Assembly: GCA_036172245.1 (NCBI GenBank)
Contig: JAYWIR010000123.1
Location: forward strand, 62,001-100,993
DNA: 38,993 nucleotides
Origin: Raillietiella orientalis
Lineage: Eukaryota
Direction: 5' to 3'
A program made the position numbers and the translations under genes. The notes beneath the pieces were generated by a model. The model was not told the DNA's origin and made no database searches. It saw only the letters and a program-made list of their open reading frames with translations. The stretch's first letter is position 1; every line of letters begins with the position of its first letter. Below are positions 6,629-38,993 of this stretch, piece by piece.

Positions 6629-7236
6629 CATATCTTTTAGTCGGACGCGGGACCTCTGGTTTCCCCAAAGGGCTTTCCTGATGAAACCCCTTCTCCGTGT
6701 CCTAATTTGGGGAGGGAGGCGCACACAAAAAGTAGAGGGTGAAGGAGAGGTCCACAAAGGCGTTCCACAGCGCGGCCCGTAACCACAAGTAGAACTTGCC
6801 GTCCCTGAACGGGCCGATCGCCAACTGCACCTTTGGAGATGGTCAGACCAGGCTTCTGCAGCGCAGAAGTCCCCAAACGGCACGCCAGGGTACTTGATGT
6901 ACCTGCCCGTGGGGATCCCCGAGCGGATCCAGTCCGGCCCTCCTGCCCGCGACGAGTCAAAAAAGATGATCGGCCATTTCGTCCTGTTCACCTCGAGGCA
7001 TGTCCCGCGGCGCAGCAACTCGACGGATTCTTCGAGCGCCGATGCCTGGGAGGACGCGGCTAGAAGGAGTAGAAGGTCAACCGCATAGGCCGACACGGCA
7101 GGCGTGCCGGAACACGAGCTGGGCACAGTTGCCAAAGTCTAACTGTATGATCTAAGAACAACTCAAAGTAGATGCTGAAGAGTAGGGGGCTGGGGCTGTC
7201 TCCCTGCCGGATGCCGCGACCAACAGCCACGTCGTG

Positions 7237-7330
7237 GTTCTTCGAGCTTGGCTGCAGTATCGCTGCAGCCACTGACATTTTATTGTGGAGTTTATTTTTA
7301 AATAAACGTCCTGGAGAAATCCGGGTTAAA
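7237..7330 (+). mobile_element. ~94-bp extreme 3' end of a LINE, inserted antisense into the RT of S1 at the RKSFD codons, with an adjacent host deletion
   Basis: Hairpin TGGCTGCAG-TATCG-CTGCAGCCA (7249-7271), AATAAA at 7301, then CCTGG-AGAAAT-CCGGG-TTAAA. Immediately followed by ATCGAAAGATTTACG (antisense of RKSFD). Host RT between KSFD and HDVAVGRG is missing. Confidence 0.8.
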
Positions 7331-7371
7331 ATCGAAAGATTTACGCATATCGACTGCGATCGCAAAGACTC

Positions 7372-10521: not shown

Positions 10522-10702
10522 ACCTGCGCTGGAGTAAAGTGCTCCTGGTCTTCTTCGTCCAGTAAGCAGGCATACTTGGATTGCTAGGCCTGCCTCTCTG
10601 CTCCAGCCTTGAACTCTGCCAGGCGACTGACGTTGGGCTTGTTAAAGAACGACGGGCGTGCGGATAGCTCCTGTCGTTCCTCACCCCATCCCCGAAGACC
10701 GG
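10522..10702 (-). pseudogene. Fragment M: EN-RT linker of an older minus-strand element, sandwiched between two antisense insertions
   Basis: Reverse complement translates (with a frameshift) as PVFGDGVRNDRSYPHARR..KPNVSRLAEFKAGAERQA*QS..LLDEEDQEHFTPAQ, homologous to GFGEGPRNERCYLQARR..RRLAEYRAGAERQAWQS in element A. Confidence 0.85.
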
Positions 10703-12719
10703 CCTCGAAAAACCTTTCACCACCGGCGAAATTCTTGCCGGTATCAGAAGGCTCAAGAGACGTAAGGCTCCAGGGGAGGACGGCTTGCCCGCGAAGTTCT
10801 TCCGGTGCTTCGCGGCAGAGCTGGCACTTCTGGTTCTCGAGTTGACAAGGCTAATCCGAGAAGAAGGCGATGTTCCCGCCACGTTTCGGTCAGCCAGGGT
10901 GAGGCTGATTTCGAAGGGAGCAGAACTCAGGAAACTTAGCAACTGGTGTCCGATCACGATTGTGAACACGGACGCCAAGTTGATTGCCGGGCTGTGACCG
11001 GGATAGGTGTCCAATTCCATGATTAGTCCGGAGAAGACCTACGCTGTTCCCGGGCGAAGTATGGAGGACAACCTCTTCTTCGCGAGCACATGGTGTCAAG
11101 TGCAGCGGACTGAGAAGGAAGTGAACGGGAAAATTTGCAACCCCAGTTTGGGACCGTCAGTAGGACAGGGAAGGGACATCCGGGCAGGGAAGAGGGCCCT
11201 AGTGATCGCGGTCGATCTCCAAAAGGCGTTCGACTGCGTGGACCAGGAGCTTCTGTTGGAGCTCCTGGGTCGTATGGGCCTCAAAACCACCTTGATAACC
11301 GACCTGCGCTCCTGCTGGCGACATGCGATTGTTACCGTCTCTTTTAGCAGTCAGAAGGTGTATAACTTGCTGGTGTGACGGGGCATAGGGCAGGGCGATA
11401 GTCTCAGTCCCCGGCTCTTTAGCACCTACTTTGAATTGGTGCTGAGAGCGTACAGGGCAACTGTGCCCCCTTGCTGAGCTCGTGCTTCGGCACGGCCGCC
11501 GTAGCAGCGTACGCCGACGATCTTCTACTCATGTTACCTATGTCCACCCCGGCGAAGGCGGTCGGGGATTTCTTCGATCTGCTTAGCCGCGGGACAGGAC
11601 TACAGGTGAACCAAGCGAAGACGACGGTGGTGCCAGTAGATGCGCCGTGGTCAGGTCAGCAGGATTGGGTCCGTTTGAAGATCCCCATGACGAGGTACGT
11701 CAAGTACCTTGGTGTGCCGTTTGCGGATTACTCCTCTGCGGAATAGTGGTCCGGCTGCCTCCGAAAAGTCGAGTCGGCAATCGGCCCGTTCCTGGAAGTC
11801 AAGTTTCACTTGCAGTTACGGGCCGTGGTTTGAAACTCCTTCACCGCCCCTATCCTCGGTCCCTTGCTTTTTGTTTGCCCCTTCCCCGTTGAAGTCAAGA
11901 AGAGGACGAAGGACTTCCTCTATATTGCCCTTTTGGGCAATGTGAATCCTTGAGTCCCTTTCAGGGACTTATGCGCTCCGCTTCGGGATGGTGGTCTTGG
12001 CCTCCTAAAGCTGGAGCGCTTGGAGGTACAGCTGCGATGGCGCACCCTCGCTATCGCAGCGAAGTCGTGGAGCACCTCTTCCTGCGTTCCGGCCTGCCTA
12101 CTCGCCAGGCGTGTGTGGAGGTACGAAGAACTCGCATCTTTTCTTCTGTTCCCTGGCCGGAAGATCAGAAGATGCGGCCTACTGCTCGGGCGCATGGGAA
12201 CCCTGGCAAAGAACAGCTGGATGGTTTGCAGCCCTGCCAAATTCTCCGCCTGGCTGGAGGAAACCGCTGGCACCTGGGCTGCTATTAACCTGCGGAGTGA
12301 TGAATCTTGCAAGCGCCTGCGCTGCAGCATATACGCTTGCCGCACTCTGGAAGAAATACTGGAGTTTCCCGCGAGCAACACTTGGGCCGATACGACACCC
12401 CTTGCTACGGCGATGCCCTTGCTGACGAAGGCGCTTCACGGCAGCCGGATGCGAAGGTTGCAATTCTCCTGCCGAATCGCAGGCAGGGAGAAGTTTATAA
12501 GCGGCTGGAAAACAGGAGAACTGGCGGACGCCACGACCACGAGCGTCCAGCCGCGTGGTATACTGAGAAGGGGCGAGCTGCTCGCCATCCCCAGGGATGA
12601 GGCGAAGTGGCCCCCGGCATGGAATGAATACAGGATCCTGACCCTTAAGTGGCAAGAGTCGATGCTGCTGCTGTTGCACTGGGGTTTACCCTGCAACGTG
12701 CGTCGCTTCCACTGGACGC
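10703..12719 (+). mobile_element. Element I: 5'-truncated B-family ORF2 (RT to start of zf region), degraded
   Basis: EKPFTTGEILAGI, KAPGEDG, DLQKAFD, AYADD, MSTPAKAVGDFFDLLSRGTG and GELADATTTSVQPRG closely match elements D and C. Confidence 0.9.
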
Positions 12720-12932
12720 CGCATCGCCATTTTCCCAGGATTAACACTAGGGGTCGTCAGTCGCAGTCATATTCGCGCGGCCTGTTGGAATGCCAAGGAG
12801 CTGCGCGACGACGAAAACAGGCGAGCTACAAAGAACACCCTGCGTGAGCTAGACCTGGCCCTGTTGCAGGAGGTCCATGTCATCACCGCGGAAGACGTCC
12901 AGGAGATCGAGTCGATCGCGGATGGTCGGCTC
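12714..12932 (+). mobile_element. Fragment I2: ORF1 end / ORF2 endonuclease start of a second B-family copy, fused to I
   Basis: GGACGCCGCATCGCCATTTTCCCAGGATTAACA matches the ORF1 end of B (38951-38983). Followed by IRAACWNAKELRDD..LRELDLALLQEVHVITAED. Confidence 0.85.
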
Positions 12933-15009
12933 TTGATGACCCAATTGCACCGGGGCGTTTATTAAAAAACTGTCAGGAAACAGAGTTCCTGGACAAGGAA
13001 AAACAAGAGACAAAGGGGGTGGGATCCCCGACACGCAGGTTGGTATGCCGAAAGTACGGAACAGGAGGGAAGAGAACAGAAATACACTCTAATGAAAAAA
13101 AAAAAAAGTATGGAGGGCAGCGGACAGGGGTGTTTGGTTTGGCCGTTCCTTCGTTTCAAAACTGGCGATGGATACCGATGATTTCTCTCCTCACGTCCTC
13201 TGACACATGGGCCCACTCGGCAGCCGACCACATGCTTGCCCTGGCTAATCCAATGGACTGACGATATATGGCCAGCTTCACCTACTCTCGGTGGGCCTTG
13301 TCGATGGCGCGGGTGCAACACACGGCTGCAACAACAGCACCTAGAGACAGGCCGCCTAGCGTGAAGAGACGGCGCATCAAGTCTCTCGCGGTGTCCGTCT
13401 GGTGCAGGAGAGATGGAGCCAGCCTCCGCCAAAGTCGTAGGAGGGCACCGCAGTCCAAGAGCAGGTGCAAGAGCGTTTCCACTTCCCTACACCGCTTGCA
13501 GTTTGGGGAGACAACTGCCCCGGAAACAAGGATCGTTCGCTGGTTGGAGTGAATACCTCAATGCACCAGCATGATGACGTCCTGTTTCCACGATAGGGGG
13601 AACACAGAAGTTTTTTTAAAAAGAGCAAGAAACTACAAGTTCTTCAAGGGGCACACTCAAGTGTTCACTCCACCGAAGAAGTCCCTGCGGGATGTGAAGA
13701 GGCGTGGAGGCATCTGCCAGCTCGCAAGTCCTCTAGACGCCAATAAGTCGCGTTGTTCCTGCAATGATGCAGGCGACCTCCCATCTCGCAGGTTCGCCGC
13801 TGTCATCTCTTGCCCTGAGGGCTGACAGCGCGTCGGCGAGGGGGGTGAGGGCCAGGCAAGTCTACTTCTCCTGGCTGTTGCAGACCTCATCCACTGTGCA
13901 GTACGGGGAGAGGTGAACGCAACAGAGTTCCAGGAGGGAAACATCTTGGTGCTTTGCCCAGCCGTGCATCGGTTTCTGCTGCATGCTTGAAAGTTCGTTG
14001 GGCAGAAGGAGATCCATTCCTGAGCTGCTAGGGGCCAGTAGAGGTGCTTCAACGGGAAACAAAAGTTCTTGTAGCGCGCTACGTATGCGGCCGCAGCGAA
14101 AGCATTCCATCGCTGCCGGTGCAGCGCCGCAGGAGAAGGCGCGCGGAAGCGCATCGAGGAGTGGACCAAGGGTTGGCGCAAAGGGCCAACATCCGAAGCT
14201 GCACCTTCAGATCGATTCTCTCCAGCATCAGGAAGCCTAAGCCAGCATCCCGACGCGGAGCCGCCAAGTCTGTGAGGCGGATCCTGGATCTCGCAGGTCC
14301 ACAAAGAGCGTTTCTCTACAGGCTGTGCGCCTGTAGCTTGGTCGAGTAGGAAGGCGGGCAAACAGGGGGCGCAAGAGGAAGGCAACGATTCTGTTCCATA
14401 TCGCGGCCCGCTACGACAGGAGGAACCTGCCATTGTGGAACGGGCTCAGAGTACTCGTAGCCTTTTGAAGGCAGTCCGACCACACTTCCTCTGGGCTGTT
14501 GTTACCCAGCGGAACGCCCAGATATTGGATGGACGAAGCGGTCAAGATACCCAGGCGGATCCAGTCGGACTGCCTATCCCACGCCGCACAAATAGGAACG
14601 ACCACGCTCTTGCTCCGGTTTAAGCTCATGCCCGCTCGCCGGTGAATCAGCTCGAAGAAATACTCAAGACTGGACTCCAGAGTGGTCATGGGTAAGAGGA
14701 GAAGCAGGTCATCAGCATAGGCCGCCACGGACGGCGTTCCTGGACAAGAGCTCGGCAGGCTGGACAGCGTGAGCCTGTACGCCATCAGCACCAACTCAAA
14801 GAAGATGTTGAAGAGCAACGGGCTTAAGCTGTCGCCCTGCCTGAAGCTTCGCGCACCGGTACGCCGTACTCGTGGCAGCTGTTGAAAGGCAAAGAAATGA
14901 GCGCGTGGCGAAAGCAAGCGCGCAAATACGCCACGAGGTGCACCGGGAAACCGAGGCATTCCAGGTGCTCCAGCAGAAGATCCTGATTTACGCAGTCGAA
15001 CGCCTTGCG
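12933..15009 (-). mobile_element. Element J: ORF2 3' half (RKAFD to zf-RVT) plus 3' UTR and terminus; degraded
   Basis: RKAFDCVNQDLLL, RQGDSLSP, AYADD, IQYLGVP, RRDAGLG, ETLLHLLLDC. Terminus AATAAACGCCCCGGTGCAATTGGGTCATCAA. Confidence 0.9.
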
Positions 15010-16161
15010 TGCTCCAAGGTAGACGTGTTTTCTCGGTGCTCCTTGTGCCAGGAAGTCTCCCCCAGTGGAAGCGTCGTGTGTTTCGGTGGTCGATCAGGCA
15101 GCGATGCCTGACGCGACCACCAGGGATGGCCAGGGAAAAGCGGCAACGCCGCCACCAGAGGCGATGGAGGTGGGGGCATCCGCCCCCACAGAATCGGTCC
15201 CCGCTGCAGCGCGGGCGTGGAGCGCCGTTGTGTGGGCGCCATCGCCTCTAGCCGCGGCGGAATTCTCGGCCTATGTAGAGGAGGGGTACAAACCCTCATT
15301 GTTCTACAACGTAAGCAACCTTTATTCTTTAGAGAGGGAGCACGCCTTTTCGAAGGGCATGAGCGCTCTCGATGTGAAGGAGGAGGAGCTAAGCGCTATG
15401 ACCACCCGCAGCGGGGGTCAGTACATTGAGGTCATCTGCAAACATGCAGAGCTGGCCCAACGACGAATTAAAACCTTCGTTGTGATGGGGACGCGCAGGC
15501 TCCTCTCCACTACGGCGGACCGCAGCATGGTGGTCCACCTGTTAGGCTTAACAGCGCGAATGCGCAAAGAAAAGGTTGGCGCCGCTCTGGAACTGTTCGG
15601 AACGGTCCACGCGCAGTGGACGAAAGTTAGTCCCTTCGAGGACTACACGGGGCTGCAACATGGTCTCACGGCTGCGCGCGTTACCGTTCGGGAGGGCTGC
15701 ACTCTTCCCCACAAACTGGTGGTCGAAGGCCGAACCGTCGACCTCTGGTATGTGGAGTAGCCGAAATACTGTGGCTTCTGCAATACGTCCGTCCACCTCA
15801 AAAAGGTGTCCCAACGTGCAGTGCTAAATATGCGGCACAATGGGTCACACGAGGGAGGTGTGCCCTAAAGAAGCAGTGCGGGTGGTTTCCAAGAGAAAGC
15901 TTAAAAACGCGCCCGGCTTCTGCAGAAAAGGCTGGAGGCGAAAGCTGCCGCGAAGGCTGTGCCACCCGCGCCCAACGCCCAGGCTGCACCCAAGACCCCG
16001 GCCAAGAACGCCGAACAAGTCGAGGGAACTAGCCAGGAGAATGGGTGGCAATTGGCAACGGCGAAAAAATCAAAGAAGAAGAGGAGATTAGAGAAAAAGC
16101 TCGCTTACCGCCAGAAAAAACAGCAGGCAAGCCAGCCGATAAAAAAATGCAGCGTTGTCGT
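15010..16161 (+). mobile_element. Element H (same family as G): 5' UTR plus ORF1 (ATG 15104, premature stops), cut off by element K
   Basis: 5' UTR GACGTGTTTTCTCGGTGCTCC shared with G. MPDATT..VGASAPTESVPAAARAWSAVV, RSGGQYIEVICK, LPHKL..LWYV, decayed CCHC knuckles, ending at IKKCSVVV. Confidence 0.9.
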
Positions 16162-18888: not shown

Positions 18889-21344
18889 TGCGCTTCGTGG
18901 ATAGAGAGTTTTTTTTTTCTAGGGTTTCGTGTGTGTTTCGCGGCCGTTGACAGGCAGAGATGCCTGTGAGCGCCGCAGTTTCAAGTGATGGAGGCGGGAA
19001 AACCGCGCCTCCCAAGCCAAAGGAGGTGGGATCACGCCCCACCACTACTTCTGAACCCGCCACTACGGCGAGGGCCTGGAGCGCGGTGGCAGCAGCGGAA
19101 ACGCCCGATGTCGCCACAGAGATACAATCCCACATCGAGGAGGGCTACAATCCGGCCCTTCTGTACAGAGTAGGAAATTTATATTCCCCGTTAAGGGCGC
19201 GAAAGTTCTGCAATGCCATCAAAAAGATGGGCATTGCCGACCATGAAATTCTTTGCCTGTCCATACGGAGCGGAGGGCAGTTGGCGGAGCTTATCTGCAA
19301 GGATGCAGCTCTTACCCACAAGATGCTCTGCACGCCCGTACAATTTGAGGGCAGGAATTTACTCCAACACACGGTGGACCCCTCCATTGTGGTCCACCTA
19401 ACAGGGACAACAGTGCGGATGGATGAGAACGTCATCCGCGCTGAACTCGAAAAATTCGCTAGCGTTTTCGCGATGTGGGGAAAGCCCAACACCTTCGGAG
19501 TGAACGGTGCGTTCAGTGGGCGAGTAGGCGCGCGCGTGACGCTTAGAGAAAGCGTACAGCTTCCCCACAAGCTCCAAATTGGCGACGAGTTCGTCGACAT
19601 TTGGTTTGTGGGGAAACCTAAATTTTGTGGAAACTGTAAGTCGTTCGGGCTTTTGAAAAAGCGGTGCCCGGACGCGGTTTGTCCAACGTGAGGCGCGGAG
19701 GGCCACACCAAAGTGCTGTGCTCGATGAAGGTCGGTCAAACGCCGAAACTTCTGCAAAAGAAGGAAGGGAAGGCAAAAATAGTGAAAAACCCCACAAAAG
19801 GGGATCAGCCGTCGGCTCCGACAAAAGTCGAGCAGCAGGAAAGGGACTCGGTACAGGAGCTCCCGGAAAAGACTGTGGACGAGGAAGGCTGGCAGCTGGT
19901 CACCCGAAAAGTAAAAATCGTCAAAAAAACCGCGCCCGCACCGGCGAAAGTGGTGAAGGGCAAGGGGAAGGTCGTGCCACGCCCAACAATCAAAGCGTGC
20001 AGCGTGGCCATCAAACGCGTGCAGGCGATTGAACTACAACTTAGGTTCAGGACTCTCGCCCTTGCGGCGGAATTGTGGGACACGCCTTGGTGCGTTCCAG
20101 CACGCCTCCTGGCCCAACGAGCCTGCGGATTCGACGGACTTTTGTCGTTTCTGTCTGCGCGCGTCTGCAGAAGACCATACTGTGGCTCTATGCTGCGACG
20201 CATCTTTGTTGCGGTTCGGGAGAACGCCTGGATCTCCTGCCTCCCAGGGAACTACTCCGCCTGGTTGCACGAGTCAGTCTCCAACTGGGTAAACATCCAC
20301 GTTCCGGCGGGCACAAGGAGCACTTGTATGAAAAGGCACGACCGCTTGACGCTGCAGGAGATCGTGCAGTCCCACGACAAGCTTCTGTGGGCCTTGATAA
20401 CCTTCCTCGCCCCAGTGCTGCCCTTCCTTGTGAATGCCAGGGACAGTAGCGAGCAGGGAAAATGGACCGTGTCCTGCACTATAGGCGGCAGGACACAATC
20501 GATAAAGGCGTGGACATCTCGGCAGCTAGCTGACGCTGCGACGCCGAGTGTCCCGCCCAACGTAATTCGACGCTGGGGCGAGCTACTCGGACTATCTCCG
20601 GAGGAAATGAAGTGGCCCCCAGCGTCCTGGAACAGTGCATCCCTCCCCTTGAAATGGCAGAATGTAACGTTGCTTGTAATCCTCTGGGGACTTCCATTCA
20701 AAGCACGCCTTCATCACACAACCCGGAGGGCTGTGGATCCTTATTGTGACCGGTGCGGGGAAAAAGAGACCTTCCCCCACCTTCTTATCGAGTGCAGTGC
20801 CATCCGCCCTTTATGGGATCGTCTCGCGGCGATCCTGGACTTGCGCGGATGCGGTTTAAAGGACGTTTTCAGGCGCCTCTTCTGTAGCGACGCCTTGTCC
20901 CCGCCCGCTAGTGTAGCAGTCCTCTGCTGCATCAGAGGAATAGTGGCGGCTTGGAACGCCACCAGAAGAAGGCGTCAGCCAACCGGCAACGCCTTACACT
21001 GGACTCGCGTTTTCGCGCGAAGTGTCTGCAAGTGGCGCCACTTGGGCGCTGAAAGGACTCAGCTTGTGCGGATCCTGAATAGGATCTAGAGGACCTCTCC
21101 ACGCGCACCGTGATCCCTTCCCCGCCCTCCCACCCCTACAACATTTGTTCCCCCCCACATTTGAACTTTTTGTTTCTTTTTGTTTTTCTTTATTTCCCAT
21201 CCCCTCGCATCGGAAGGACCTCTCCGGGACGGAGCCGGTAACCAGCAATCTGTTTTGGAGTGGTGAACCTTCGGGTTCGCCACGCGACATTTTTCTGTAA
21301 TTTTATTCCTATGAAATAAATGCCTTGGCACATCCGGGTGTGAA
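18889..21344 (+). mobile_element. Element L: 5' UTR plus ORF1 N-half (ATG 18960) fused near 20030 to an ORF2 C-terminus (zf-RVT), with 3' UTR and terminus; EN and RT core absent
   Basis: ORF 18960-19691 has ORF1 motifs. ORF 19713-21089 switches from ORF1 (IKACSVAIKRVQAI) to ORF2 (IELQLRFRTLALAAELW...CDRCGEKETFPHLLIEC). Terminus AATAAATGCCTTGGCACATCCGGGTGTGAA. Confidence 0.85.
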
Positions 21345-22725
21345 CAAGCCGCCGCCGTACGAACGCCGATGCCGCGACAAAGTCGCGAACCCAGCGTGAG
21401 CGGCGACGACCGGGACTTCAACAAGGCGGCGGAAGAGTTGGCAGCCATGCTCCAGCAACCTCCCAAGGCCCAGAAGAAGGCCTTGAGGCGTCCGGCTGAG
21501 GCGAAAGGACCGGAGACTTCCGAGTCCGAAACCGAAGCCGGCAACGCTCCATCTGTCGCTCTCCCGATGCGCAAAGCGGGCCGCAAGGTAGGCAACCCGC
21601 GGCGCTCCGCACCTCCACCGGCGGAGGAGGAAATGCGGTCGGACCACGACGACGGGGACGCGATGTCAACGAGGTCTCGCGACTCCTCGCCGGAGACGTC
21701 CCTGGCTAAGCAGGATCCTCCAACCACCACCTCAACCACCGACGGACCGCCACCTTGCGAGGAACAGCACGTCGCAATGGAAACACAACTCCCGCCTGCT
21801 GAACAGCAGGCGGAGGACGGTAAGCAAGCGCAATAAACACATCACCGCGTGTACTCTCCTCCTGCCGGCGACTGCGCGTAATCTGTTGGAACGTCAACGG
21901 GCTGCGCGACGACGGCAAGAGGAGAGAAGTGGCCGCCAGCCTGCGGGACTTCGTTCTGGCGCTACTGCAGGAGACGCACGTGCTCCACGCAGGGGAGGCC
22001 CAAGAAATCGAACATATCGCAGGCGGGCGGCTCATATACGAGAACGGGATACCGCACTCGCGGTGTGGCTTTCATGCTGAAGCCAGCCGTCGTTAATGCG
22101 CTGCGCGACGAGCATTTCGACGGGGAAGGTCAAATCGGGCAGCTTGTTGCCAAGTGGTCCGACGCGATCGACCTCGTCGTGACCAACGTGTACGCGCCCG
22201 GCACGAGCCACAGGCGCGGGGAACGCACTGCGTTCTTCGAAGGCCTGCGGCGAGATTGGCTGGCCGAAGCAGGCATGCGAAAGGCGCCCCTCATTGCCGG
22301 GGACTTTAACGTCCGCCTGCTGGCAGGTGCGCCCGACATTCGCGCACACCTGGTCAACGAGATGTGCGCTGCCATGCACGCGCGCAACTTGTTGGCCGGT
22401 GACGCCGGGACGGAGACGAGGATCGACCACATGTTCCTCGAGAACCACCTGTGTTCGCGGGTGGCAAATCGAGGGGCAGTGCCATCCGAACTCTCCGACC
22501 ATCCCCGGCTCGTGCAAGATATACACCCGCGCGGTAGAGGTCCACCCTCCAAATTGTGGCGTTTGCCAGGGGACTGATTGCGCCTCGCAGGAGCAGCGCA
22601 ACATCTTCGCTCGTTCCTGCAAGGCTTCCATCTGCAGTCGCTCGCGGATTGGGACGACTTGAAGAGCTCAGTCCGCGAGTTCTGCGACCAGTTTCCCCTG
22701 AACCGTCTCCCTCCAGGTTTCGGCG
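21345..22725 (+). mobile_element. Fragment E: ORF1 C-terminus plus APE endonuclease up to the GFG linker
   Basis: DFNKAAEELAAML..RKAGRK (ORF1, stop 21836). CWNVNG, LLQETH, TNVYAPG, IAGDFN, RIDHMFL, SDHPR, FCDQFPLNRLPPGFG, then cut by the 3' end of D. Confidence 0.9.
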
Positions 22726-22930
22726 TTGTCACCCGGGTACGCCCGGGGCGTTTATTTATAAACTCTACATGCGTGGTACGAAGCCCCACCACGGCCGTAA
22801 ACACGCCACCTGTCGGGACACCGGGACGCAGCCCGGCGTGGCACTCCCCGACAGCCAAGGGGGATGGGGATAAGGCAAAAAGTAAAATAAAAAGAAACAA
22901 ACAAAAATAAGTTGGAGGGCAGGGAAGGGA

Positions 22931-25724: not shown

Positions 25725-25741
25725 TGGAGATTCCGGAGCGT

Positions 25742-25760
25742 CGAGCGGACGTGTCTTTTC
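25742..25760 (+). promoter_or_regulatory. Conserved 5'-terminal motif GAGCGGACGTGY(Y)TTT(T)C, putative internal promoter or start element (also 8331-8350 minus, ~15018-15035, 34025-34043 minus, 37011-37029)
   Basis: Found at or within ~20 nt of the 5' junction of five copies from three divergent ORF1 types (degenerate in H). Function is inferred. Confidence 0.55.
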
Positions 25761-25823
25761 GTTGCTCCTGAGCTCCATTTCCGATGGTGCTTGTGCGTGG
25801 TGTGGGTGGAGGATTACGCAGCA

Positions 25824-27482
25824 ATGCCTGATACCACCACCGGTGAGGATCCGGGAGTGATGACCTCATTGCCCCCGGAGGAGATGGAGGTGGGGGCTCC
25901 CGCATCAGTGGAGGCTCCCGCCAGCACGGATGCGCCCCCGGCCCTACCCAGGGCTTGGAACGCCGTGGCTGCGGCACCTACGCCAGCGGCTATGGCGGAA
26001 ATGCGCGCTTACCTGGAGGAGGGGTATAACCCACCACTTCTATATAAGGTAGGCGGTTTATATTCTCCCGAGAACGCGCGCGCCTTTTCGCAGGCGATGC
26101 GCGCTCTCGGTGTACAAAAAGAGGAGCTTCTGGCTATGTCCGTCAGAAGCGGGGGTCAATTTGTGGAAGTTATCTGCAAGGAGGCAACTCTTGCTCAGAG
26201 ACTTCTGCGAACCCCCGTAATTATGGGCAGCCGGAGGCTTCTCCCCATTACTGAAGACCGGTCGGTGATCATTCACCTGACCGGTATCACGTTCCGGATG
26301 ACGAAGGAGTCCGTCCGGAACGAATTAGAAAAGTTTGCAACTGTGCACGCGCTGTGGGGAAAGCCTACTCCTTTTGTCGATTACGACGGGGTGCTTGGCG
26401 GCCTGGTTGCAGCGCGAGTGACGGTTCGCGAGGGATGTGAGTTTCCCCACAAACTCACCGTCAACGGTGAATCCGTTGACGTGTGGTACGTGGGGAAACC
26501 CAAGTTTTGCGGCTGCTGCAGCAGCTTTGGTCACCTTAAAATGAGGTGTCCGAGCGTGCAGTGCCAGCAATGCAAACAAGCGGGGCACACCCGTCTGGTG
26601 TGCTTCCAAAACACAGTCCGCGTCGTGTCCGCGAAAAACGCGAGAAAGCGCGCGGCTAAAAAAAGGAAGAAGCTGGCAGCTCGTGCTGCTGCTAAGGAGG
26701 TCACCTCCGTCACCAAGGCGAAGGCCAGCCCCGAGACTTCGGCGAAAGACGCCGAAAAGGTCGAGGGCGAGGGTCAAGAGCCATGGTGGCAGAATGTCGA
26801 CCCCAAGAAAAACTCCCATAAGAAGGGAAAGAACGTGGCGAAACGGAGCGAAACCGCTCTGCGCCGCGAAAAAATTAAAAGCTGCTGCGTCGTTGTAGAG
26901 CGGATTCCCGCCATCGACGAATGCGGCGCTAAAGAACTCGCTGCTGCCCCTGCTCAACCCTCCGTTGACAAAGTCAACAAGGAGGGGAGCGAGGCGGCGG
27001 CGTCCGTCATCGAGCCCACGCTCGATGACGTCGCCTTCGAGCGCGCCGCGGAGGAGCTGGCTGCTTCGCTGCAGCCGGTTGCCCCCAAGGCTGGCAAGAA
27101 GGCCGTCAGGCGTCCGGCTTCCCCTCAGGAGTCGGCCACTTCCGACCCCGAGGTGAAGGCCGGAAAAACAGCATCCATCTTCGCGGCACCCCGCAAAAAG
27201 GCAGGACGAAAGTCCACAATGCCCCGGAAGATCGTGTCCCCCGACGAAGGGGAAGAGATGGCTTCCGGTAGCGAGGGTGCCATGAGCGTGGGAAACTCCC
27301 GGGACCCGTCGCCCGAGAGAATTCCACGCTCGGACACGGAGGGGATGGTGAGGATGGAGGCCGAACAGGTACCCCAGGCGCCTGAAGAGGCCTCCGTTTT
27401 CGTTCCGATGGTCCTCGTACCGATGGACCTTTCGTACACCTGCCCCGCGGCAGGTGCCGCGACGCCACTTTCCCAGCCATAA
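25824..27482 (+). CDS. Element A ORF1, intact gag-like nucleic-acid-binding protein (~552 aa; RRM-like region, 2x CCHC, disordered basic/acidic tail)
   Basis: Open frame. ATG 25824 (MPDTTT) aligns with the starts of G and H. CGCCSSFGHLKMRC and CQQCKQAGHTRLVC. Confidence 0.9.
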   Translation: MPDTTTGEDPGVMTSLPPEEMEVGAPASVEAPASTDAPPALPRAWNAVAAAPTPAAMAEMRAYLEEGYNPPLLYKVGGLYSPENARAFSQAMRALGVQKEELLAMSVRSGGQFVEVICKEATLAQRLLRTPVIMGSRRLLPITEDRSVIIHLTGITFRMTKESVRNELEKFATVHALWGKPTPFVDYDGVLGGLVAARVTVREGCEFPHKLTVNGESVDVWYVGKPKFCGCCSSFGHLKMRCPSVQCQQCKQAGHTRLVCFQNTVRVVSAKNARKRAAKKRKKLAARAAAKEVTSVTKAKASPETSAKDAEKVEGEGQEPWWQNVDPKKNSHKKGKNVAKRSETALRREKIKSCCVVVERIPAIDECGAKELAAAPAQPSVDKVNKEGSEAAASVIEPTLDDVAFERAAEELAASLQPVAPKAGKKAVRRPASPQESATSDPEVKAGKTASIFAAPRKKAGRKSTMPRKIVSPDEGEEMASGSEGAMSVGNSRDPSPERIPRSDTEGMVRMEAEQVPQAPEEASVFVPMVLVPMDLSYTCPAAGAATPLSQP

Positions 27483-30400
27483 TGCCGGGAATCGCCTCTC
27501 GCCGTCATCTTCTGATCGCCTGTTGGAACGTGAACGGGCTAAGCGACGACGGCAAGAGGCGTGACGTGGCCGCCACCCTGGCATCCTTCGACCTGGTGCT
27601 GCTGCAGGAGATCCACGTGATCTCCGCAGATCAAGCCCGGGAGATCGAACGGATCTCGGGTGGGCGGCTGTTGTGGCGTTGCGGCACCGCGAAATCAAGC
27701 GGTGTCGCCTTCCGGCTTCGGCCAGCCATCGAGACCGCAATAAAGGACGTTCGGTTCGATGACGCAGGTCGCGTCGGTCAGCTGACTCTCAGCTGGTCCG
27801 ACTCTATCGACCTGGTCGTCACCAACCTATACGCTCCTAGCGGAAATAACGCGTTGAAGGCGAAGGCAAGAAGGGAATTCTACCTTGCCCTGAGACGCGA
27901 CTGGCTGACCGATGCAGGAGTTCGCAAAGCGCACCTGATCGCAGGTGATTTCAACCTGCGCCTGCTTTCAGGTGCGCCGGATACACTGAACGACCGCGTC
28001 AACAAGTTGTGCGCAGAAATGAACACGCGCAACTTGTTGGCCGGGGACACGGCCATGGAAAGCAGCATCGATCACGTGTACCTTGATCAGCACCTATGCT
28101 CTCGGGTGGGCAGGCGCGGCAAGGTACCATCCGAGCTGTCGGACCATGGTCGGATCATGTTCGAAGTGCGTCCGCGCGACAAGGGCCCCCCCTCGTCAGC
28201 GTGGCGTCTGCCAGGGGACTGGTTGAAGTTTCCCGACGCGGCGGAGCACCTCCGCGCGTTTATTCGGAGCTTCAGGATGCAGACACTTCAGGACTGGGAC
28301 CGCTTCAAGCGGTCGGTCCAGGAGTTCTGCGATCAGTTCCCCCTGCATCGCCTACCTGCGGGATTTGGGGAGGGGCCGCGTAACGAAAGGTGCTATCTTC
28401 AGGCCCGACGTTACGCAAGAACCCCCGACATGCGCAGGTTAGCAGAGTATCGAGCGGGAGCCGAGAGGCAAGCCTGGCAATCCGGGTCGGCCAGCTTGCT
28501 GGACGACCGGGGCCGGGAGCACTCGGTTCCCGCTCAGAAACGCGGGATAGTCAGGAAATTTTACTCCTCCCTGTACGCCAGGGCGCCTCCGGAGAGAGAC
28601 GTCTCACGACTTCTGCTTCCGGAAGGTGCTCCAGCGATCGGGGAGGAGGAGAAAAGAAGCCTCGACGAGCCTTTCACGATGGACGAGATCCTCTCGGCCA
28701 TCGGAAAGCTCAAGAGGCGGAAGGCTCCAGGGGGGACGGCCTGCCCGCGGAGTTTTACCAAACTTTCGCGGCTGAGCTTACTCCCCTGGTACATCAGCTC
28801 ACCTTGCTGATCCGTGAAACAGGTGACGTTCCCACCTCGTTTCGTTCAGCAAAGGTGCGGCTCCTCCCGAAGGGAGGAGACCTAAGGAGCATGAACAACA
28901 GGCGTCCCATTACAATAGTGAATGCGGACGCCAAGTTGATAGCCAAGATGGAGGCAGAGCGCCTGGGACGGGTCGCCAACATCTTCATCAGCCCGGAACA
29001 GACTTATGCTGTTCCCGGGCGGAGCATGGAGGCGAACCTGTTCCACGCTTCCACATGGTTAGAGCTCCAACAAGGAAGGGGCTTATTGAGCAGCCGGAAT
29101 TCCGGTGCGTCCGTTGGCGGGAGACGGAACGGTTGGGTGGGGAAGGGAGCCCTTGCGGTCGCTGTCGACTTGCGTAAAGAATTCGACAGCGTCGACCAGA
29201 ATCTCCTGCTGGAGCTTCTGGAACGCTTGGGCTTCCCGGCCTCTTTGTTGGCCTACCTGCGCTCCAGCTGGCGCGACGCGCTCATTAATGTTCTTTTCAG
29301 CGGGCAGACCGTGCACGGAGTACCGGTGCGACGCGGCATACGGCAGGGAGACAGCCTGAGCCCCGTGCTCTTTAGCGCCTTTTTCGAATTAATGCTGAGA
29401 GCGTATAGGGAGACTCTTGCGCACCTGCCGTGCGATTGCCCCGGTACGCCTGCGGTTTCGGCGTACGCGGACGACCTTCTGCTCCTGCTGCCTATGTCCA
29501 CCCCGGCTTCGGCGGTCGAGGAGTTCTTCGACCTGCAGAGTCCGGGAACAGGACTGACGGTGAACAGGGCGAAGTCGTCCGTAATGCCAGTCGGGGCGGC
29601 GTGGGCAGGGCAGCAGGACTGGGTCCGTTTGGAAATCCCCACGGTGAGGTACTTCAATTACCTTGGTGTGCCGTTGGGGGATTACTCCTCTGCGGAAGCG
29701 TGGTCCGGCTGCCTTCAGAAGGCTCAGGAGGGGATCGGCCCGTTCCAGGACGGCAGGTTCTTCCTGCATGAACGGGCCGCGGCGTGGAACGCGTTTGCGG
29801 CCCCCCTCCTTCGCCCCTTGCTTTTTGTTTGCCCCCCCTCAGCGGAGTCAAAGAAGAGGACGAAGGACCTCCTGAGGATCGCCCTTTCGGGCAGAGGGAG
29901 GCCCCGAGTCCGTCTATCGGACTTGTGCGCTCCTCGTCGGGATGGTGGTCTGGGCCTCCTGACGTTGAAGCGGCTGGAGCTACAGCTCCAGTTCCGAGTT
30001 GTTGCCTTTATGGCAGAAAATTGGTGCACCCCTTGGTGCCTCCCTGCACGTCTTCTCGTCGAGCGGGCCACCGGCAATGCAAGACTCTCGTCCTACTTTG
30101 CACTCCGAAGCCCCATCTGCCACTGCGGACTTCAACTTCGGAGTGCGGCCAAGCTCGTGAAGAACAACTCGGCGCGGATCCTCGTACGCCCCGCGAACGG
30201 TCCTGCCTGGTTGCAGGAAACCGTCCGCACGTGGGCGATGATTCAGCAGCAGAGCCCGAAACACGAGCGAATAGCTCTGTTCGGGCCGCATGCCCGCCGC
30301 ACGCTCCGAGAAATCATCGAGAATCCCCGAAGAAGAGCGTGAACACAAAGAATCTCCCTTGCTGCGGTACTGCCTACCCTACGGGAACATCTGGGCAGCG

Positions 30401-31061
30401 ACGTCGCGGCACAATGGGAGGTTACTGTCAAGATCGCCAGCAGGGCAAAGAAGATCGGGGATTGGAGAACGGGTCAGCTCAATAACGCTGCGACCCCGAG
30501 GACCACCCCAAATATACTGTTGCGCTGAAGAGAGCTACTAGATGTTCCAGAGGAACATCTCGAGTGGCCTTCGGTGCTCATAGACTCGCGCACCCTCCCC
30601 ATGAAGTGGCAACAGTCGGCACTGATGGTGTTGCATTGGGGGCTTCCTTGCAACGCCCGCCGACAGCACTGGACTTGGGGGGGTGTCAACCCTAATTGTG
30701 TCAGGTGCGGGGAGAGGGAATACCTCACCACCTGTTAGTGGATTGTGTTGCCCTCCGTCCCTTGTGGGAACGCTTTGCCGCAGCCCTGGGGATCCCCGGA
30801 GGCAACTCCAGAGACGCTTTGCGCCCCCACTTCGTCCGTGACGCCCTGCCTCCAGAGGCCTCGCTTGCAGCCCTGGGCTGCCTACGCGAGATCGTCGTGG
30901 CATGGAGCAAAGCGACGGGAGGATCCAGCGACAGGGATGCCAACGTGTATGTTGCCCGTTTCTACTGGATGTCGACGCGATGGCCCCATCTGGAACCACA
31001 CAAGCAGAAACAGCTTGCCGGCATCCTCCAGAGGATGACGGACCCTCCCAGCAGACTGTGA
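27482..31061 (+). pseudogene. Element A ORF2 (APE endonuclease, RT, zf-RVT), frameshifted near 28730, ~30340 and ~30720
   Basis: ATG overlaps the ORF1 stop (TAATG). WNVNG, LLQEIH, NLYAP, GDFN, IDHVY, SDH; DLRKEFD, GIRQGDSLSP, AYADD; CVRCGERE..HHLLVDC. Confidence 0.93.
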
Positions 31062-31244
31062 TCCCTTCCCGCTCCCTCCCTGATTTTTGTTTTTTTTTTG
31101 TTTTCTTTTTGTTTCGTTCCCCCTCCCCTCTGCTGCCGAGGTCGACCGCGCCGGTCTGCGCACCAGTAGCCCGGCAAGCTATATCTTTCCAGGGCGTGGC
31201 TGGACTACTGGTCCAGTCACAGATTGTATAGGTTTATTCGTGAG

Positions 31245-31274
31245 AACAAACGTCCCGGCGCACCCAGGTTTCAA
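31245..31274 (+). other. Conserved 3'-terminal module: poly(A)-signal-like hexamer + CCCGG-N5/6-CCGGG hairpin + ~6-nt tail (9 copies in the window)
   Basis: Copies at 6343-6372(-), 7301-7330(+), 10491-10521(+), 12933-12962(-), 16162-16191(-), 21315-21344(+), 22726-22756(-), 31245-31274(+), 34063-34092(-). Two of them directly abut verified TSDs. Confidence 0.88.
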
Positions 31275-32077
31275 TGGAGATTCCGGAGCGTGACGCCTCT
31301 CAGGTAATCGCGAAGGTGTTCACTCGCACCTGAGATTAGCGTCCAGTCCCCCAACAGACACCAATCCCTGGATGGCGGTCCTTTGTCGCGAGGACGCATC
31401 TCGAAAATTAGCCGGGAATGGTCCGACAACGTCGACACAACCCTCCCCCGTTTGCCGACGCGTGAACACAGGACAGCGTCGAGGAAGACGTGGTCGATGC
31501 TGTGGACCATTCCCCTCTCACCCGTGAACAAGTTGCGCGCACGCATGGCGGCGCACAACTCGTTCATCGCGTTCACTTGTGTTTCCGGCTCACCTGTTAG
31601 CAGGCGGAGATTGAAATCTCCCGCTATCAGGTGAGCTTTTCGCACATTGGTATCCGCCAGCCAGTCGCGCTTCAGGGTTTCCAGCAGCCTGGTGCGGTCG
31701 CGGTACCCCTGTTTGCCGCTGGGGCCATACACGTTTGTGACGATTAGGTCGATCGAGTCGGACCAGCTGAGAATCAGCTGACCGATCCGACCGTCGTCAT
31801 CAAACCGCACGCCCTTTACGGCAGCGTCGATGACCGGCTTCACGAAGAACGCGACCCCGCAGGTGTTGCGGAGGCCGCATCGCCAATACAACCGACCTCC
31901 CGCGATCGTCACGATTTCCTGGGCGTCTGCCGCGGTGATCACGTGGATCTCCTGCAGCAGCGCCAGGTCGAGCTCACGCAGGGTGTCGGCCGTATCTCGA
32001 CTGTTGCCGTTGTCGCGCAGCCCGTTGACGTTCCAAATGGCCGCGCGAATCCCACGGCGACTGGCGAGCCCAGGTGT
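31275..32077 (-). pseudogene. D ORF2 N-terminal APE endonuclease (open frame, no AUG start), separated from its RT by element A
   Basis: TPGLASRRGIRAAIWNVNGLRD..LLQEIH..TNVYGPS..IAGDFN..SIDHVFL..SDHSR. Confidence 0.92.
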
Positions 32078-33950
32078 TAGTCCTGGAAAAACGGCGATGC
32101 GGCGTCCGCCACCTGCTGGGGCGGGTCGCTAGGTGGAGGGGGAGGGGATACAGGTACTGAAGGCACCTGTTCCTCCTCCTCCATCGGTGCCGGCGGGTCG
32201 ACCGGATCACCCGCAGGTGAAGTCGCGCCTACCTGTTCGCCCTCCTCCATGGGTTCGGGCTGCTCAGGTTTCGCGAGTGCAGGGAGGACTTCACCCCCCT
32301 GCTCACCCTCCTCCATGGGGGTGGTCGAGTCGACGGCTTCCGGGCGTGGGTATTCCCCCTCCGGGATTCCCACGCTGCCGCTTCCTTCCGGTTTCTACTC
32401 CTCGCTGGTGGAGTGGAGGCGCCTCCTGGGTTTCTGGGACTTGCGTCCCGCCTTCCTGGGGGGTGCCTCCGAGGAGGAGGATCCGCTTCCGGCCCCCAGG
32501 TCGCACTCACCTGCGGGTGCCTTTTTCGTCGGAGCCGACCTGCGTACGCCCTTGCGCGACGGGGTTTCGCGCTCGGCGAGCGTTGCTGGGAGCTCCTCCG
32601 CCGCTTTCTCGAAGGCCGCGTCTTCGCCAGCGGCGACCGTTGCCGCGGGCTGCTTTGCGACCTTATCGAGCGCTGCGTCATCGCTGACGGCGAACGTTGC
32701 CGCGGGCTCATCCGCGACATTATCGAGCGCGGCGTTCTGGCTGTCAGCGCTCGAGTCTCGCGTCTCACCCTCTAAACGTAGAATGGGCTGGTCCACGCGA
32801 GTATTCATCGCGTCCGCATCAGCTGTTCCGCGAACATTGCCGCGGGCGGTCTCGGCAGGAACGGCTAAGCGTTCCAGTGCCACCGAGCATTCGCGGAGTG
32901 GTTTTTTTGAAAGCGGCGCGGCTTTTTTCTTGTTGCCGGCAGTATTCTTCTCCGACTTTTCTTCTGGCATCACTTTCCTTTTTTTCTCTTTTCTGGCCTG
33001 AACCAGCTACCAACCCTCCTCCATTTTCGCGTTCACGGGAGCTCTTTCCTCCGACGTCTGTACGGGAGGAAGGGAGGCTGGCAGTTGGGAACGGCCATTT
33101 TCGCGAGCTGGTCTTTCTACCAGCTTCCCACGTTTTCCCTGCGCCTTTTTGGCGGCAGGGGAACCGAGGTGGGGCGCTTGGGTCACACGCGCCGAACGTG
33201 ACCCTTTTCGCCGCATAGGTGGCACACAATGTTCGGGCACCTTTTTCGTAGATGCCCTACTGCATTGCAGTAGCCACAAAATTGACGTTTCCCCACGTAC
33301 CAGAGGTCCACCGCTTCTTGGCAGACCTCCAGCTTCTGGGGAATTGCACCACCCACTTTTAGTGTGATACGCGCCGCAGCTTGACCTCCGAAAAGGCTAT
33401 TGTAGCTTCGGAAAATCGTGGACTTCGGCCACAACGCGTGCACTTCTCCCTGCTTTTGTATCTGTTCTCGAACCGCTGACCTAGTCATGCGACTGGAGAT
33501 CCCAGTGAGATGGACCGCCACAGAGCGGTCCATCGTCCCCGGCAAGATCTTGCGACCATCAACGATCAGCGGGTTGGTGATCAGGCGTCGGGCCAAGGTG
33601 ATATCCTTGCATACCACCTCGACCCGCTGCCCGCCGCTGAGGAAGCAGAGGCCGACAAGATCTTTTTCGAAGATATTGGCGTTCTGCAGCGCATTCGTAA
33701 GGGCGCGTGCAGTTCGTCCATCGAAAAGGTTCCCTACCTTGTAGACTAGCGAGGGTTTATACCCCGCTTTCTTGTAGGCTTCCATCTCGGCCATGGCTTC
33801 AACGCTAGGCGCTGCCACTATGGCGCTCCATGACCTTGGCGTCGCCGGGGACGATTCCGGGGCGGATGCCCCTGATCCAGTAGGCTGTGGAGGTGAACAA
33901 GCATCTTCCACGCCTACTTCCATCGCGGTATCCTCTGGCGACGCTGCCAT
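32077..33950 (-). pseudogene. D ORF1 (near-identical to B ORF1, with a stop/frameshift near 33180 and a stop at 32395)
   Basis: ORFs 33183-33974, 32395-32973 and 32077-32373 together tile the B ORF1 protein. Confidence 0.92.
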
Positions 33951-34062
33951 CGGACACCGACGATGTGCACGCACAAATCACTCAAGAAGAAAAAACACTC
34001 GCTTTGCCACGCAGGCGGAGCGCAGGAAAAGCACGTCCGCTCTCCACAGCGGGGATTCGGCG

Positions 34063-37001
34063 ATGCCACCCGGATACGCCGGGACGTTTATTAAAAACAT
34101 TTCAACGGTCAATACAGAACGTGGTACAAGGCCCCACTAACGGCCACGCAATACGGGAACTGCCGGGACACCGGGACGCAGCTCGGTGTGGCTCTCCTCA
34201 GCAGCAGAGGGGGATGGGGGAGAACACAAAAATAAAATAAAAGAGAAAAGCAAACCACAAAAAAAAGTTTGGAGGGCCGGGAAGGGATCACAGAAAACTG
34301 CTGGGAGGGCCCATCCTTTGCAGGATGCTTTCTAGTTCCTTTTTTATCCTTCCTAGATGGGTCCATCGGGTAGCTCTCTGCAGGAAGCGAGAAGCATACT
34401 CGATGACATCCCTGACGATGCAGTCTTCATCTTCGGCATCACTCCAGGCCGCCACTATACCACGCATGCAGCAAAGTGCTGCCAGGGCTGCAGCTGGACT
34501 GAGGGCGTCCCGCACGAAGACAAGACTGAAGATACATTCACCATTGCCAGCATCCGGTATCCCAAGTGCCGTTTGAAGACGTTCCCAAAGAATCTGGACG
34601 GCAGGGCATTCAACTAAGAGGTGGGGGAGCGACTCCCGCTCCCCACACCTGGCACACGCAGGATTTACTCTTCCCCGCGTCCAGTGGAAGCGGCGCGCGT
34701 TGCAGGGTAGACCCCAATGCAGACACAGAAGCGCCGATTCTTGCCACTTCAGGGAAGAATCCTGAATCCAAGTAGAACCGGGGGCCACTTCAGGTCGTCC
34801 AATCGAATGCAGAGCAGCTCGCCCCATCTTCTTAATCCACGCGGCTGGATACTAGGGGTCGTTGCATCTGTCAACTCTTCCATGGTCCTGCCGCTCATCG
34901 TCTTCTCTCTGCCTGCGATACGGCAGCAGACTTGCCACCTTAGCTTCCGGCTTTCGTGAAGCGCCCTTTAGAGGTAGGGCATCGCCGTAACAAGGGGTGG
35001 GCCTTTCGCTTACGTGCAACTCGGAGGAAATTCAAGTATTACACGGAGAGTTTGTCGGGCGTAAAAGCCGTCTCGCAGGCAGTTCATCTGGTCTTCGCAC
35101 CTCTCGTTCAGCTTGGCCCAGGTGCCAGCAGTCTCTTCCAGCCAAGCGAAGGAGTTGTTAGGACCACAAACCATCCATTCGTTCTCCTTTGCCAGGGTTG
35201 CCATGCGGCCGAGGAGTAGACCGCATCTTCGAATCATCCGGATAGGGTACAGAAGAAACGATGCGAGTCCTTCGCAGCGGGACACATGGCTGGCCAGGAG
35301 ACCGGCCGGAATGCACCAAGCGGTGCTCCACATCTTCGCTAAGATGGCGAGGATCCGCCATCGCAGCTGGATTTTTACGCGCTCCAGCGTCAGGATGCTG
35401 AGACCGCCGTCCCGACGCGGAGCGCACAAGTCCTTCAAAGGGGATCGGGGCCTTCCCTTGCCCCAAAGAGCTATGCGGAGGAGGTCCTTCGTTCGCTTTT
35501 TCGATTCCACGGGGGCGGGGCAAACAAAAAGCAAGGGGCGGAGTATGGGGGCCGCGAAGGCGTTCCAAACCGCGGCCCGTTCCGCCAAGTGGAACTTGCC
35601 TTCCAGGTACGGCCCTATCGCCGTCTCGACTTTTTGGAGGCAGCTGGACCACGCTTTTGCAGGGGAGAAGTCCCCCAACGGCACACCGAGGTACTTGATG
35701 CACCTCATTGTGGGGATCCCCAGACGCACCCAGTCCTGCTGCCTTGCCCACGTCGCTCCAACTGGCAACACTGACGACTTCGCCCTGTTAACCTGTAATC
35801 CGGCCCCACGGCTAAGCAGGTCGAAGAAATCTCCGACCGCCTTCGCCGGGGTGGACATACGTAAGAGGAGCAGAAAATCGTCGGCATACGCCGCTACGGC
35901 TGGCGTGCCGGGGCACGAGCTCGGCATGGGGCCAAAGTCACCCTGTACGCTCTCAGCACCAACTCAGCGTAGGTGCTAAAAAGCAGGGGGCTGAGGCTGT
36001 CGCCCGGCCTTATGCCCCGCCGCACCGGGACGTCATACACCTTTTGTCCACTGAAAGTAATTGAGATTATCCCGTTCCGCCAGCAAGAGCGCAGGTAAGC
36101 ATCAAGGAGGGTGAGAAGCCCATGCGACCCAGGATCTCCAAGAGGAGTTCCTGGTCAACACAGTCGAATGCCTTATCAAGGTCGACTGCGATCGCTATGG
36201 CCCCCTTTCCCGCATGATGGTCCCTACATTGTCCCACTGGCGGCTCCAAAGTAGGGTTGCAAATTTTCCCTTTCCCTTTTTATTACTCCGCTGCGCGTGC
36301 ATCCATGTGCTCGCGAAGAGGAGGTTGTCCTCCATACTTCGCCCGGGAACAGCGTATGTCTGCTCCGGGCTAATTATGGAATTGGACACCTTCCCCGATC
36401 GCGACGCCCACAGCCTGGCAATCAACTTGGCGTCCGTGTTCACAATCGTGATCCGACGGCAGTTGCAAAGTTTCCTGAGGTCTCCTCCCTTCGGGAGGAG
36501 CCTCACCCTGGCTGACCGAAACGAGGCGGGAACATCGCCTTCGTCTCGGATTCGCCTTGTCAACCAGAGCACCAGGGGGGCCAGCTCTTCCGCTAAACTC
36601 TGAAAGAACTCCGCGGGAAAGCCGTCCTCCCCTGGCGCCTTACGCCTCTTGAACCTTTTGAGACCGGCGAGAATTTCACCGGTCGTGAAAGGCTCATCGA
36701 GGCTTTCTCTCTCCTCCTCCCCTATCGCCACGGAACCACTCATGAGCAATCGCCGCGAGGCGTCTTGTTCGGGTGGAGTTTTGGCGTAAATGGAGGAATA
36801 AAAACATCGTACGAGATTCCGTAAAGCAGACGGGGAAGAACGTTCCCGACCCAGGTCATCCAGCATGCTGGCTGACCCGGATTGCCAGGCTTTTCGCTCG
36901 GCTCCGGAGCGGTATTCGGCCAGGCGACGGACATTGGGGTTCCTCTCGTGACCACGCGCGTGCAAATACGCGCGTTCGTTGCGAGCCCCTACGCCGAATC
37001 C
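34063..37001 (-). mobile_element. Element C (B family): ORF2 from the GFG linker to zf-RVT plus 3' UTR and terminus; head-to-tail with D, interrupted by B
   Basis: GFGVGARNERAYL, KAPGEDG, DLDKAFD, AYADDF, IKYLGVP, CARCGERESLPHLLVEC. 3' UTR similar to D. Terminus AATAAACGTCCCGGCGTATCCGGGTGGCAT. Confidence 0.92.
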
Positions 37002-37103
37002 CCGCTGTGGAGAGCGGACGTGCTTTTCCTGCGCTCCGCCTGCGTGGCAAAGCGAGTGTTTTTTCTTCTTGAGTGATATGTGCGTGCACATCGTCGTTTT
37101 CCG

Positions 37104-38981: not shown

Positions 38982-38993
38982 CACCTGGGCTCG

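Follow-up and report, generated by a model that had tools for sequence, protein, structure and literature searches.

Among the long interspersed nuclear elements (LINEs), site-specific insertion is known for targets in rDNA, snRNA and tRNA genes, microsatellites, telomeres and a DNA transposon; R1 inserts in 28S rDNA and Tx1L in the DNA transposon Tx1D. LINEs of the Zepp type pile into each other and possibly form centromeres. Here we analyse a stretch of 38,993 nucleotides from Raillietiella orientalis (assembly GCA_036172245.1, contig JAYWIR010000123.1, positions 62,001 to 100,993 of the forward strand; hereafter the window), which holds a cluster of mutually nested LINEs. Members of one group, the B clade (the elements B, B'/D, C and I), lie repeatedly and in antisense orientation at ten bases that code for GFG, within the motif P-x-G-F-G, in the linker between the endonuclease (EN) and reverse transcriptase (RT) domains of the second open reading frame (ORF2) of other LINE copies. 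This repetition points to a self-renewing target site, which one window cannot prove.

The L1-type LINEs Zepp, of Chlorella and Coccomyxa, and Zepp-like ZeppL-1_cRei, of Chlamydomonas, resemble the locus in that GC-rich clusters of mutually nested LINEs stand beside DNA of lower GC content, and the Zepp-like trait of nested clusters of copies inserted in one another is found in the window. The passages concerned give for Zepp no nucleotide-level target, orientation rule or fixed target site duplication (TSD) (PMC8226300, PMC3446292), unlike the B clade described here, and the same passages do not explain how Zepp-type LINEs find each other. A table in PMC3747384 assigns poly(A) tails to Zepp and L1-1_CR, whereas in the window eight of eight ends examined have a hairpin and a short tail; the likeness described here is one of arrangement.

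LINEs of the Tx1 and R1 clades, which have an apurinic/apyrimidinic (APE-type) endonuclease, resemble the B clade, compared feature by feature, in having a target present in many copies, an exact 3' junction, a defined TSD and re-use of the site. The B clade would differ from them in its target, a conserved protein-coding motif within LINE ORF2 that is entered in antisense and supplied by the family itself, and its specificity looks partial. Twin priming is the mechanism of the 5' inversions of L1, which resemble parts of the window in their head-to-head 5' and 3' segments and in microhomology at the joint. Transposons are already among the known targets of sequence-specific LINEs, as a passage of PMC4640811 states. 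Full-text literature searches, which did not reach the primary Zepp papers, turned up no LINE described as targeting LINE coding sequence with nucleotide precision.

Insertion junctions at the GFG codons

A profile was made from the window's own copies, and the window was mapped onto its 5831 positions (hidden Markov model, HMM, coordinates below), with the GFG codons at about 2883-2892. Host E (21399-22725, +; HMM 1447-2901), composed of an ORF1 tail and EN, ends at P-P-G-F-G according to tblastn and nhmmer. It reads ...CCTCCAGGTTTCGGCG, in which the 10-mer GGTTTCGGCG (22716-22725) codes for P-G-F-G and immediately borders the antisense 3' end of D (TTGTCACCCGGG...). D (22726-25741, -; 3' end 22726) comprises the linker, RT, a 3' untranslated region (UTR) of about 1 kb, a 3' hairpin and the tail GGGTGACAA. 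After another copy of the 10-mer, GGATTCGGCG (34053-34062, +), the antisense 3' end of C (ATGCCACCCGG...) begins just as directly and at the same nick position; both visible 3' junctions, those of D and C, thus lie at the identical base. C (34063-37001, -; HMM 2882-5830; tail GGGTGGCAT) is itself a B-clade element that extends from its GFG codons (36992-37001) to the 3' end at 34063. It reads GFG|VGARNE, and from 37002 onwards the 5' UTR of B (37002-38993, +) takes over, an element whose ORF1 (634 aa) is intact and whose EN has only begun when the window ends; we read C as a host broken at GFG by B. At the fourth junction, the host LINE fragment M (10488-10699/10702, -; HMM 2883-3060) starts at P-V-F-G (CCGGTCTTCGGGG in antisense, 10690-10702), and its GFG is adjoined at about 10702/10703 by I (10702/10703-12717, +; HMM 3181-5213), a 5'-truncated B-clade element antisense to M. 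A first-pass annotation made from the sequence alone had reported these four junctions, the common register of the D and C 3' ends and the antisense insertion at the linker, all of which are present in the sequence as described.

Two corrections to this picture concern the unity of D and B' and the D and C junctions, which do not lie in two hosts. D and B' (31275-34052, -), the latter with 5' UTR, ORF1 and EN and its 5' end at 34052, are separated by F (25742-31274, +), a full-length LINE of 5533 nt with an ORF1 of 619 aa, EN, an RT with one frameshift and the 3' hairpin. F entered B'/D in antisense at its TLRNL codons, which lie 75 nt upstream of GFG, and is flanked by a perfect 17-bp TSD, TGGAGATTCCGGAGCGT (25725-25741 and 31275-31291); when F is taken out, 31275 joins 25724 and the frame ...LRGVTLRNLQDWDLFKESVREF... 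is restored. Because of this perfect TSD and the in-frame joining of B' to D, we take the two to be halves of one element, B'/D. Around it stands a 10-bp TSD with one mismatch, GGTTTCGGCG (22716-22725) and GGATTCGGCG (34053-34062; likewise CGCCGAAACC and CGCCGAATCC), the latter being the second copy of the target duplication. The first two junctions hence occupy one physical host site, the GFG of E plus its 10-bp duplicate.

All GFG insertions (B'/D, C, B and I) are antisense, and the three host copies E, C and M, which belong to different families, are broken within about 15 nt; EN is separated from RT because the insertion falls right after GFG. Five copies in the window cover the linker, three of which (E, C, M) are broken there, while D with a perfect 10-mer and F with GGATTTGGGG are unbroken. 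The exact 10-mer GGWTTCGGCG occurs five times in the window, three times at junctions. A comparison of the four junctions over +/-200 nt found no pair with homology on both sides, the 3' junction of C and the 5' junction of B sharing the B-side flank only. The extended flank identity that the first-pass annotation had named as the mark of descent from one insertion is absent over this distance, and segmental duplication of the junctions is ruled out by the same comparison.

From the profile map, the junction comparison and the TSDs, 14 insertion events were reconstructed. Four (I, B'/D, C, B) fall on the GFG codons, two (x83 and x150, by their 5' ends) on RT motif A, and eight on other positions. 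In this reconstruction 11 of the 14 are antisense and three (K, T1, x200) sense. Random placement was simulated on a 5831-nt element; at least four of 14 events fell within 16 nt with p = 5.5e-5 (p = 0.002 for a conservative target space of 2 kb), and at least two of eight random 3' junctions fell at the identical base with p = 0.0045. All four GFG events are of the B clade, which used GFG in four of its five events in the window. The earlier statement that every mappable junction of the family falls at GFG applies to the B clade alone, and K departs from it even there. As a whole the cluster is not site-specific, and for the B clade GFG looks like a hotspot and not an exclusive site.

Target choice and rival explanations

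The GFG codons are a real hotspot, and one probably specified by the endonuclease, in a Zepp-like self-nesting LINE cluster. With slightly better than even confidence we hold that the B-clade endonuclease targets GGWTTCGGCG of LINE ORF2 in antisense self-nesting. The endonuclease of B, B'/D, C and I would nick the host sense strand right after these ten bases of the P-x-G-F-G codons, and the freed 3'-OH would prime reverse transcription, giving a new copy antisense to its host. A cut of the second strand 10 bp upstream would produce a 10-bp duplication that recreates the target and leaves the site re-usable, as for B'/D and C in host E. With a conserved coding motif as target, each sufficiently long new copy would supply a new target, as in the case of B in C; alternating orientations and Russian-doll nesting would follow from antisense insertion with a fresh target per copy. 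The earlier suggestion that an insertion disables a competitor and brings in a fresh target is a reasonable one. Ordinary target-primed insertion is at work in the cluster, as seen from the perfect 17-bp TSD of F and the 12-bp TSD of T1, and by eye no complementarity between target DNA and the 3' end of the insert RNA was found. We infer that the endonuclease, and not another factor, sets the site; the sequence in which the insertions occurred, and the location of the upstream halves of C, M and E beyond the nested inserts, are likewise our reading. A LINE that targets a selection-protected motif of ORF2 would, if true, provide a simple sequence-level mechanism for self-nesting, a clear case of competition between transposable elements and a compact endonuclease-target pair with a 10-bp site and a 10-bp stagger.

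Several points weigh against this reading. All evidence comes from one window, to which the whole analysis refers, outside data being uninformative, and a single physical site accounts for two of the four GFG events. The insertions of B in C and of I in M are visible by their 5' junctions only, and their hosts could be 5'-truncated copies. The perfect 10-mer of D (25645-25654) is intact and unoccupied, and so is an exact 10-mer in the RT of F (29454). K, which is B-like (81% to the EN of B'), lies in sense orientation in the 3' UTR of I, with only its 5' junction visible. Other families inserted elsewhere, F 75 nt upstream of GFG, T1 in RT (sense), x129 in EN and x161 in ORF1, and no clear nick consensus was found across the families, only a weak "TCG near the nick". 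B and B' also share the next 10 nt beyond the 10-mer (CCGCTGTGGA), which the 5' ends of F, x83 and x150 are without, and the 10-mer beside B' matches the copy of B, not that of E; the 10-mer could have been carried by the B transcript or copied at the DNA level. The specificity of the B-clade endonuclease is itself deduced from the insertion pattern.

Targeting may instead be regional, as for Zepp and Zepp-like LINEs. Chromatin, transcription state or centromeric histone would then draw new copies to LINE clusters already in place, with an endonuclease of loose specificity; the coincidences at GFG would arise in E from re-use of one fragile site, and in B|C and I|M from 5' joining guided by microhomology. 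We consider this unlikely, though the least so of the alternatives. It accommodates well the at least eight of 14 events that lie elsewhere (HMM ~950, 1243, ~1300, 2195, 2812, 3026, 4455 and 5213), the at least six divergent families that share the cluster and the AT-richer non-LINE DNA that borders it; Zepp nesting, too, is described in passages of PMC8226300 and PMC3446292 as aimed at existing copies, with no nucleotide target stated there. It sits poorly, however, with two 3' junctions at the identical nucleotide (p about 0.005 for eight random junctions), with three physical hosts broken within about 15 nt and with the confinement of the four GFG events to one clade when other clades inserted at other sites, and a TSD of fixed length (10 bp) is what a defined staggered cut typically leaves.

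The relation of B to B' bears on a further explanation, which we regard as improbable. In one version, the cDNA end of C (CGCCGAATCC) would have folded back on the primer GGATTCGGCG and so produced B as an inverted copy of B'; in the other, B and C would be the two pieces of a single element whose 5' part was inverted by twin priming. In both, the 10-mer would be the microhomology used. B and B' do form an inverted repeat of about 2 kb (93.5% identity; 126 substitutions in 2002 columns); the 10-mer is part of it, and its two arms enclose C exactly. The 10-mers on either side of C are inverted and not direct, and head-to-head 5' junctions recur in the window. Over aa 51-275, the core of ORF1, however, B and B' show 24.3 non-synonymous against 15.7 synonymous differences, which corresponds to a ratio of the respective proportions (pN/pS) of 0.49. 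For the disordered tail this ratio is 1.39. Such a pattern is unexpected if all differences post-date a DNA duplication; the overall dN/dS is 0.76, with a third-position excess (39/27/54). Purifying selection in the ORF1 core disfavours a pure DNA-level copy of B', and this codon evidence, of moderate strength, suggests that B and B' are separate products of retrotransposition. Twin priming of one RNA for B and C appears unlikely because that RNA would need to be 93.5% like B'/D in front, over its first 2 kb, and only 78% like it behind, over its last 2.9 kb; the other head-to-head pairs have gaps of 1.8-2.5 kb between their inverted and direct parts, unlike the classical L1 case. Nor does either version explain D|E, the 3' junction of C or I|M. 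The relation of B to B' fits any of three histories. One subfamily may have inserted twice, with a 10-bp TSD each time; the 10-mer may have been part of the B transcript and have guided its 5' joining; or B' may have been copied by fold-back while C was inserting. That the four junctions represent one insertion spread by segmental duplication, or an assembly artefact, is very improbable: the B-side flank shared by two of them would agree with it, but no pair is homologous on both sides, the inserts D and C differ by 22%, the hosts are of different families, and a 93.5% inverted repeat is not a read chimera.

RT motif A and the surrounding LINE cluster

A second candidate hotspot is found in the RT domain. 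x83 (7375-8350, -; HMM 10-942), the 5' UTR and ORF1 of an "X-clade" element, and x150 (15022-16147, +; HMM 16-1243) share 78% identity, and the 5' end of each lies directly against the catalytic RT motif A (VDLxKAFD) in antisense, at 8339-8360 and 15000-15035. The hosts, S4 (8356-10421/10432, +; HMM 3707-5803) and x129 (12937-15009, -; HMM 3708-5828), the latter starting at motif A and with its 3' end in EN residue ~80 of K, are only 67% alike, and the breakpoints agree within about 5 nt, at GTCGAC. Taken alone the pair is not significant (p = 0.076), and motif A may be a second clade-specific hotspot or an effect of microhomology (GACGT/GTCGAC). It is possible, though doubtful, that several LINE clades each evolved their own antisense target in conserved ORF2 codons, the B clade GGWTTCGGCG in the EN-RT linker and the clade of x83 and x150 motif A; such targets would be preserved by selection, each insertion would kill the host and bring a fresh target, and a self-perpetuating Russian doll of nine alternating levels would result, possibly as a centromere-like safe haven.

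Sequencing run X1 contains 7% of the sequence words and 676 short contigs of the LINE family, from which no conclusion is drawn. In one low-depth contig about 11 other letters stand between a B-like 5' UTR and a D/C-like 3' end, and the likeness to the 10-mer is only partial; another has a C-like copy unbroken through GFG. In a further contig, from the comparison of X1 with positions 19000-38993, E-like sequence up to 22723 (GFG) is joined to D-like sense sequence that starts at 24847, just upstream of RT motif A; the shorter side of the joint measures only 39 nt, and both hotspot positions (GFG and motif A) are linked in one copy.

From about 5.1 kb to the right end, the window has a GC content of 54-61% and consists nearly entirely of LINE fragments on both strands. 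Positions 1-5100 are T-rich (GC 40-49%), with no LINE match and no ORF of at least 150 aa, and probably represent the edge of the cluster. The LINEs have an ORF1 with CCHC knuckles, followed by an APE-type EN, RT and a 3' UTR of about 1 kb. The EN domain matches Pfam PF03372 (Exo_endo_phos; E = 2.9e-11, 31274-32128, -) and lies upstream of RT in F and E by tblastn; the RT domain matches PF00078 (RVT_1; E = 3.6e-18 in D, 7.6e-19 in F). With EN, RT, TSDs (17 bp in F, 12 bp in T1, 10 bp with one mismatch in B'/D) and 5' truncation (I, K, T1, x161, x200) all present, the elements are APE-type non-LTR retrotransposons. A conserved 3' hairpin with a 5-bp stem (CCCGG, loop, CCGGG) and a tail of 4-8 nt stands at eight of eight ends examined; a poly(A) end is not typical of the window, the A15 run of S4 (10416) being the only one. 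After this run, about 70-90 nt of AT-rich sequence precede M (10416-10522), unlike the hairpin ends of the other elements, and this end could mark a family of the poly(A) type, reflect transduction at the 3' side or be what is left of the original genomic DNA.

RT protein searches gave a single unnamed close relative (P0001, 65% identical), all other outside matches being at most 29% identical, some with PF13966, and they added no further loci. A metagenome scan with the RT alignment yielded 78 pattern matches, 0 of them confirmed, and in a scan with the 3'-hairpin pattern none of the 80 loci listed of 120 matches was LINE-like by tblastn or blastn; the latter loci were rejected as relatives and are chance matches.

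Identity within the window is 93.5% between B and B', 78-79% among D, C and I, about 72% between F and these, and 64-70% for the rest. The alignment of D with C (78.2%; 22716-25654 versus 34053-37001) begins exactly at the 10-mer, with no homology on the host side, and the 3' UTRs of T1, x129, x161 and x200 are barely alignable with those of D and C or with one another. Nesting reaches up to nine levels as reconstructed (M > I > K > x129 > x150 > x161 > XE > C > B). K (12714-12935, +; HMM 1974-2195) is followed by x129 and x150, and x161 (about 16150/16162-18901, -; HMM 3026-5831) has its 3' end in the ORF1 of x150. At HMM 3026 x161 is adjoined by the 5' end of x189 (18889 to about 20021, +), a 5' UTR and ORF1, and x189 and E probably belong to a single element, XE, with E on its 3' side; this pairing, as well as the host-insert assignments for S4/x83 and M/S4, we infer. 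Between x189 and E lies the 5'-truncated 3' part x200 (20028-21343, +; HMM 4509-5830), for which no TSD of at least 8 nt was found in XE. At 19990-20040 the ORF1 of x189 (…CSVAIKRVQ) meets the RT of x200 (…IELQLRFR) in a short stretch like "ALERL" of ORF1 and "LERVQ" of RT, a joint that we take to be of the microhomology type, by 5'-truncated insertion or internal deletion. The break of x150 by x161 lies only about 17 nt upstream of the ORF1 point homologous to this joint.

Towards the left edge, S1 (5127-7247, -) is split by T1 (6342-6628, -), a 287-nt 5'-truncated insert of another family, which lies in sense orientation inside the RT of S1 between copies of its 12-bp TSD CATATCTTTTAG (6330-6341 and 6629-6640). 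A 3'-terminal LINE fragment of about 87 nt with hairpin (7249-7335, +) is found between the RT of S1 and the ORF1 of x83, both on the minus strand.

The B-clade 5' ends (37002-37017 and 34037-34052) start with CCGCTGTGGAGAGCGG and can form a 5-bp hairpin (CCGCT/AGCGG). Between B and B', the C-terminal half of ORF1 has a pN/pS above 1, and ORF1 contains tandem repeats with a 57-nt unit in about 2.8-2.9 copies in B' (32574-32735) and B (38322-38484), and with a 42-nt unit in 2.7 copies in x83 (8128-8239).

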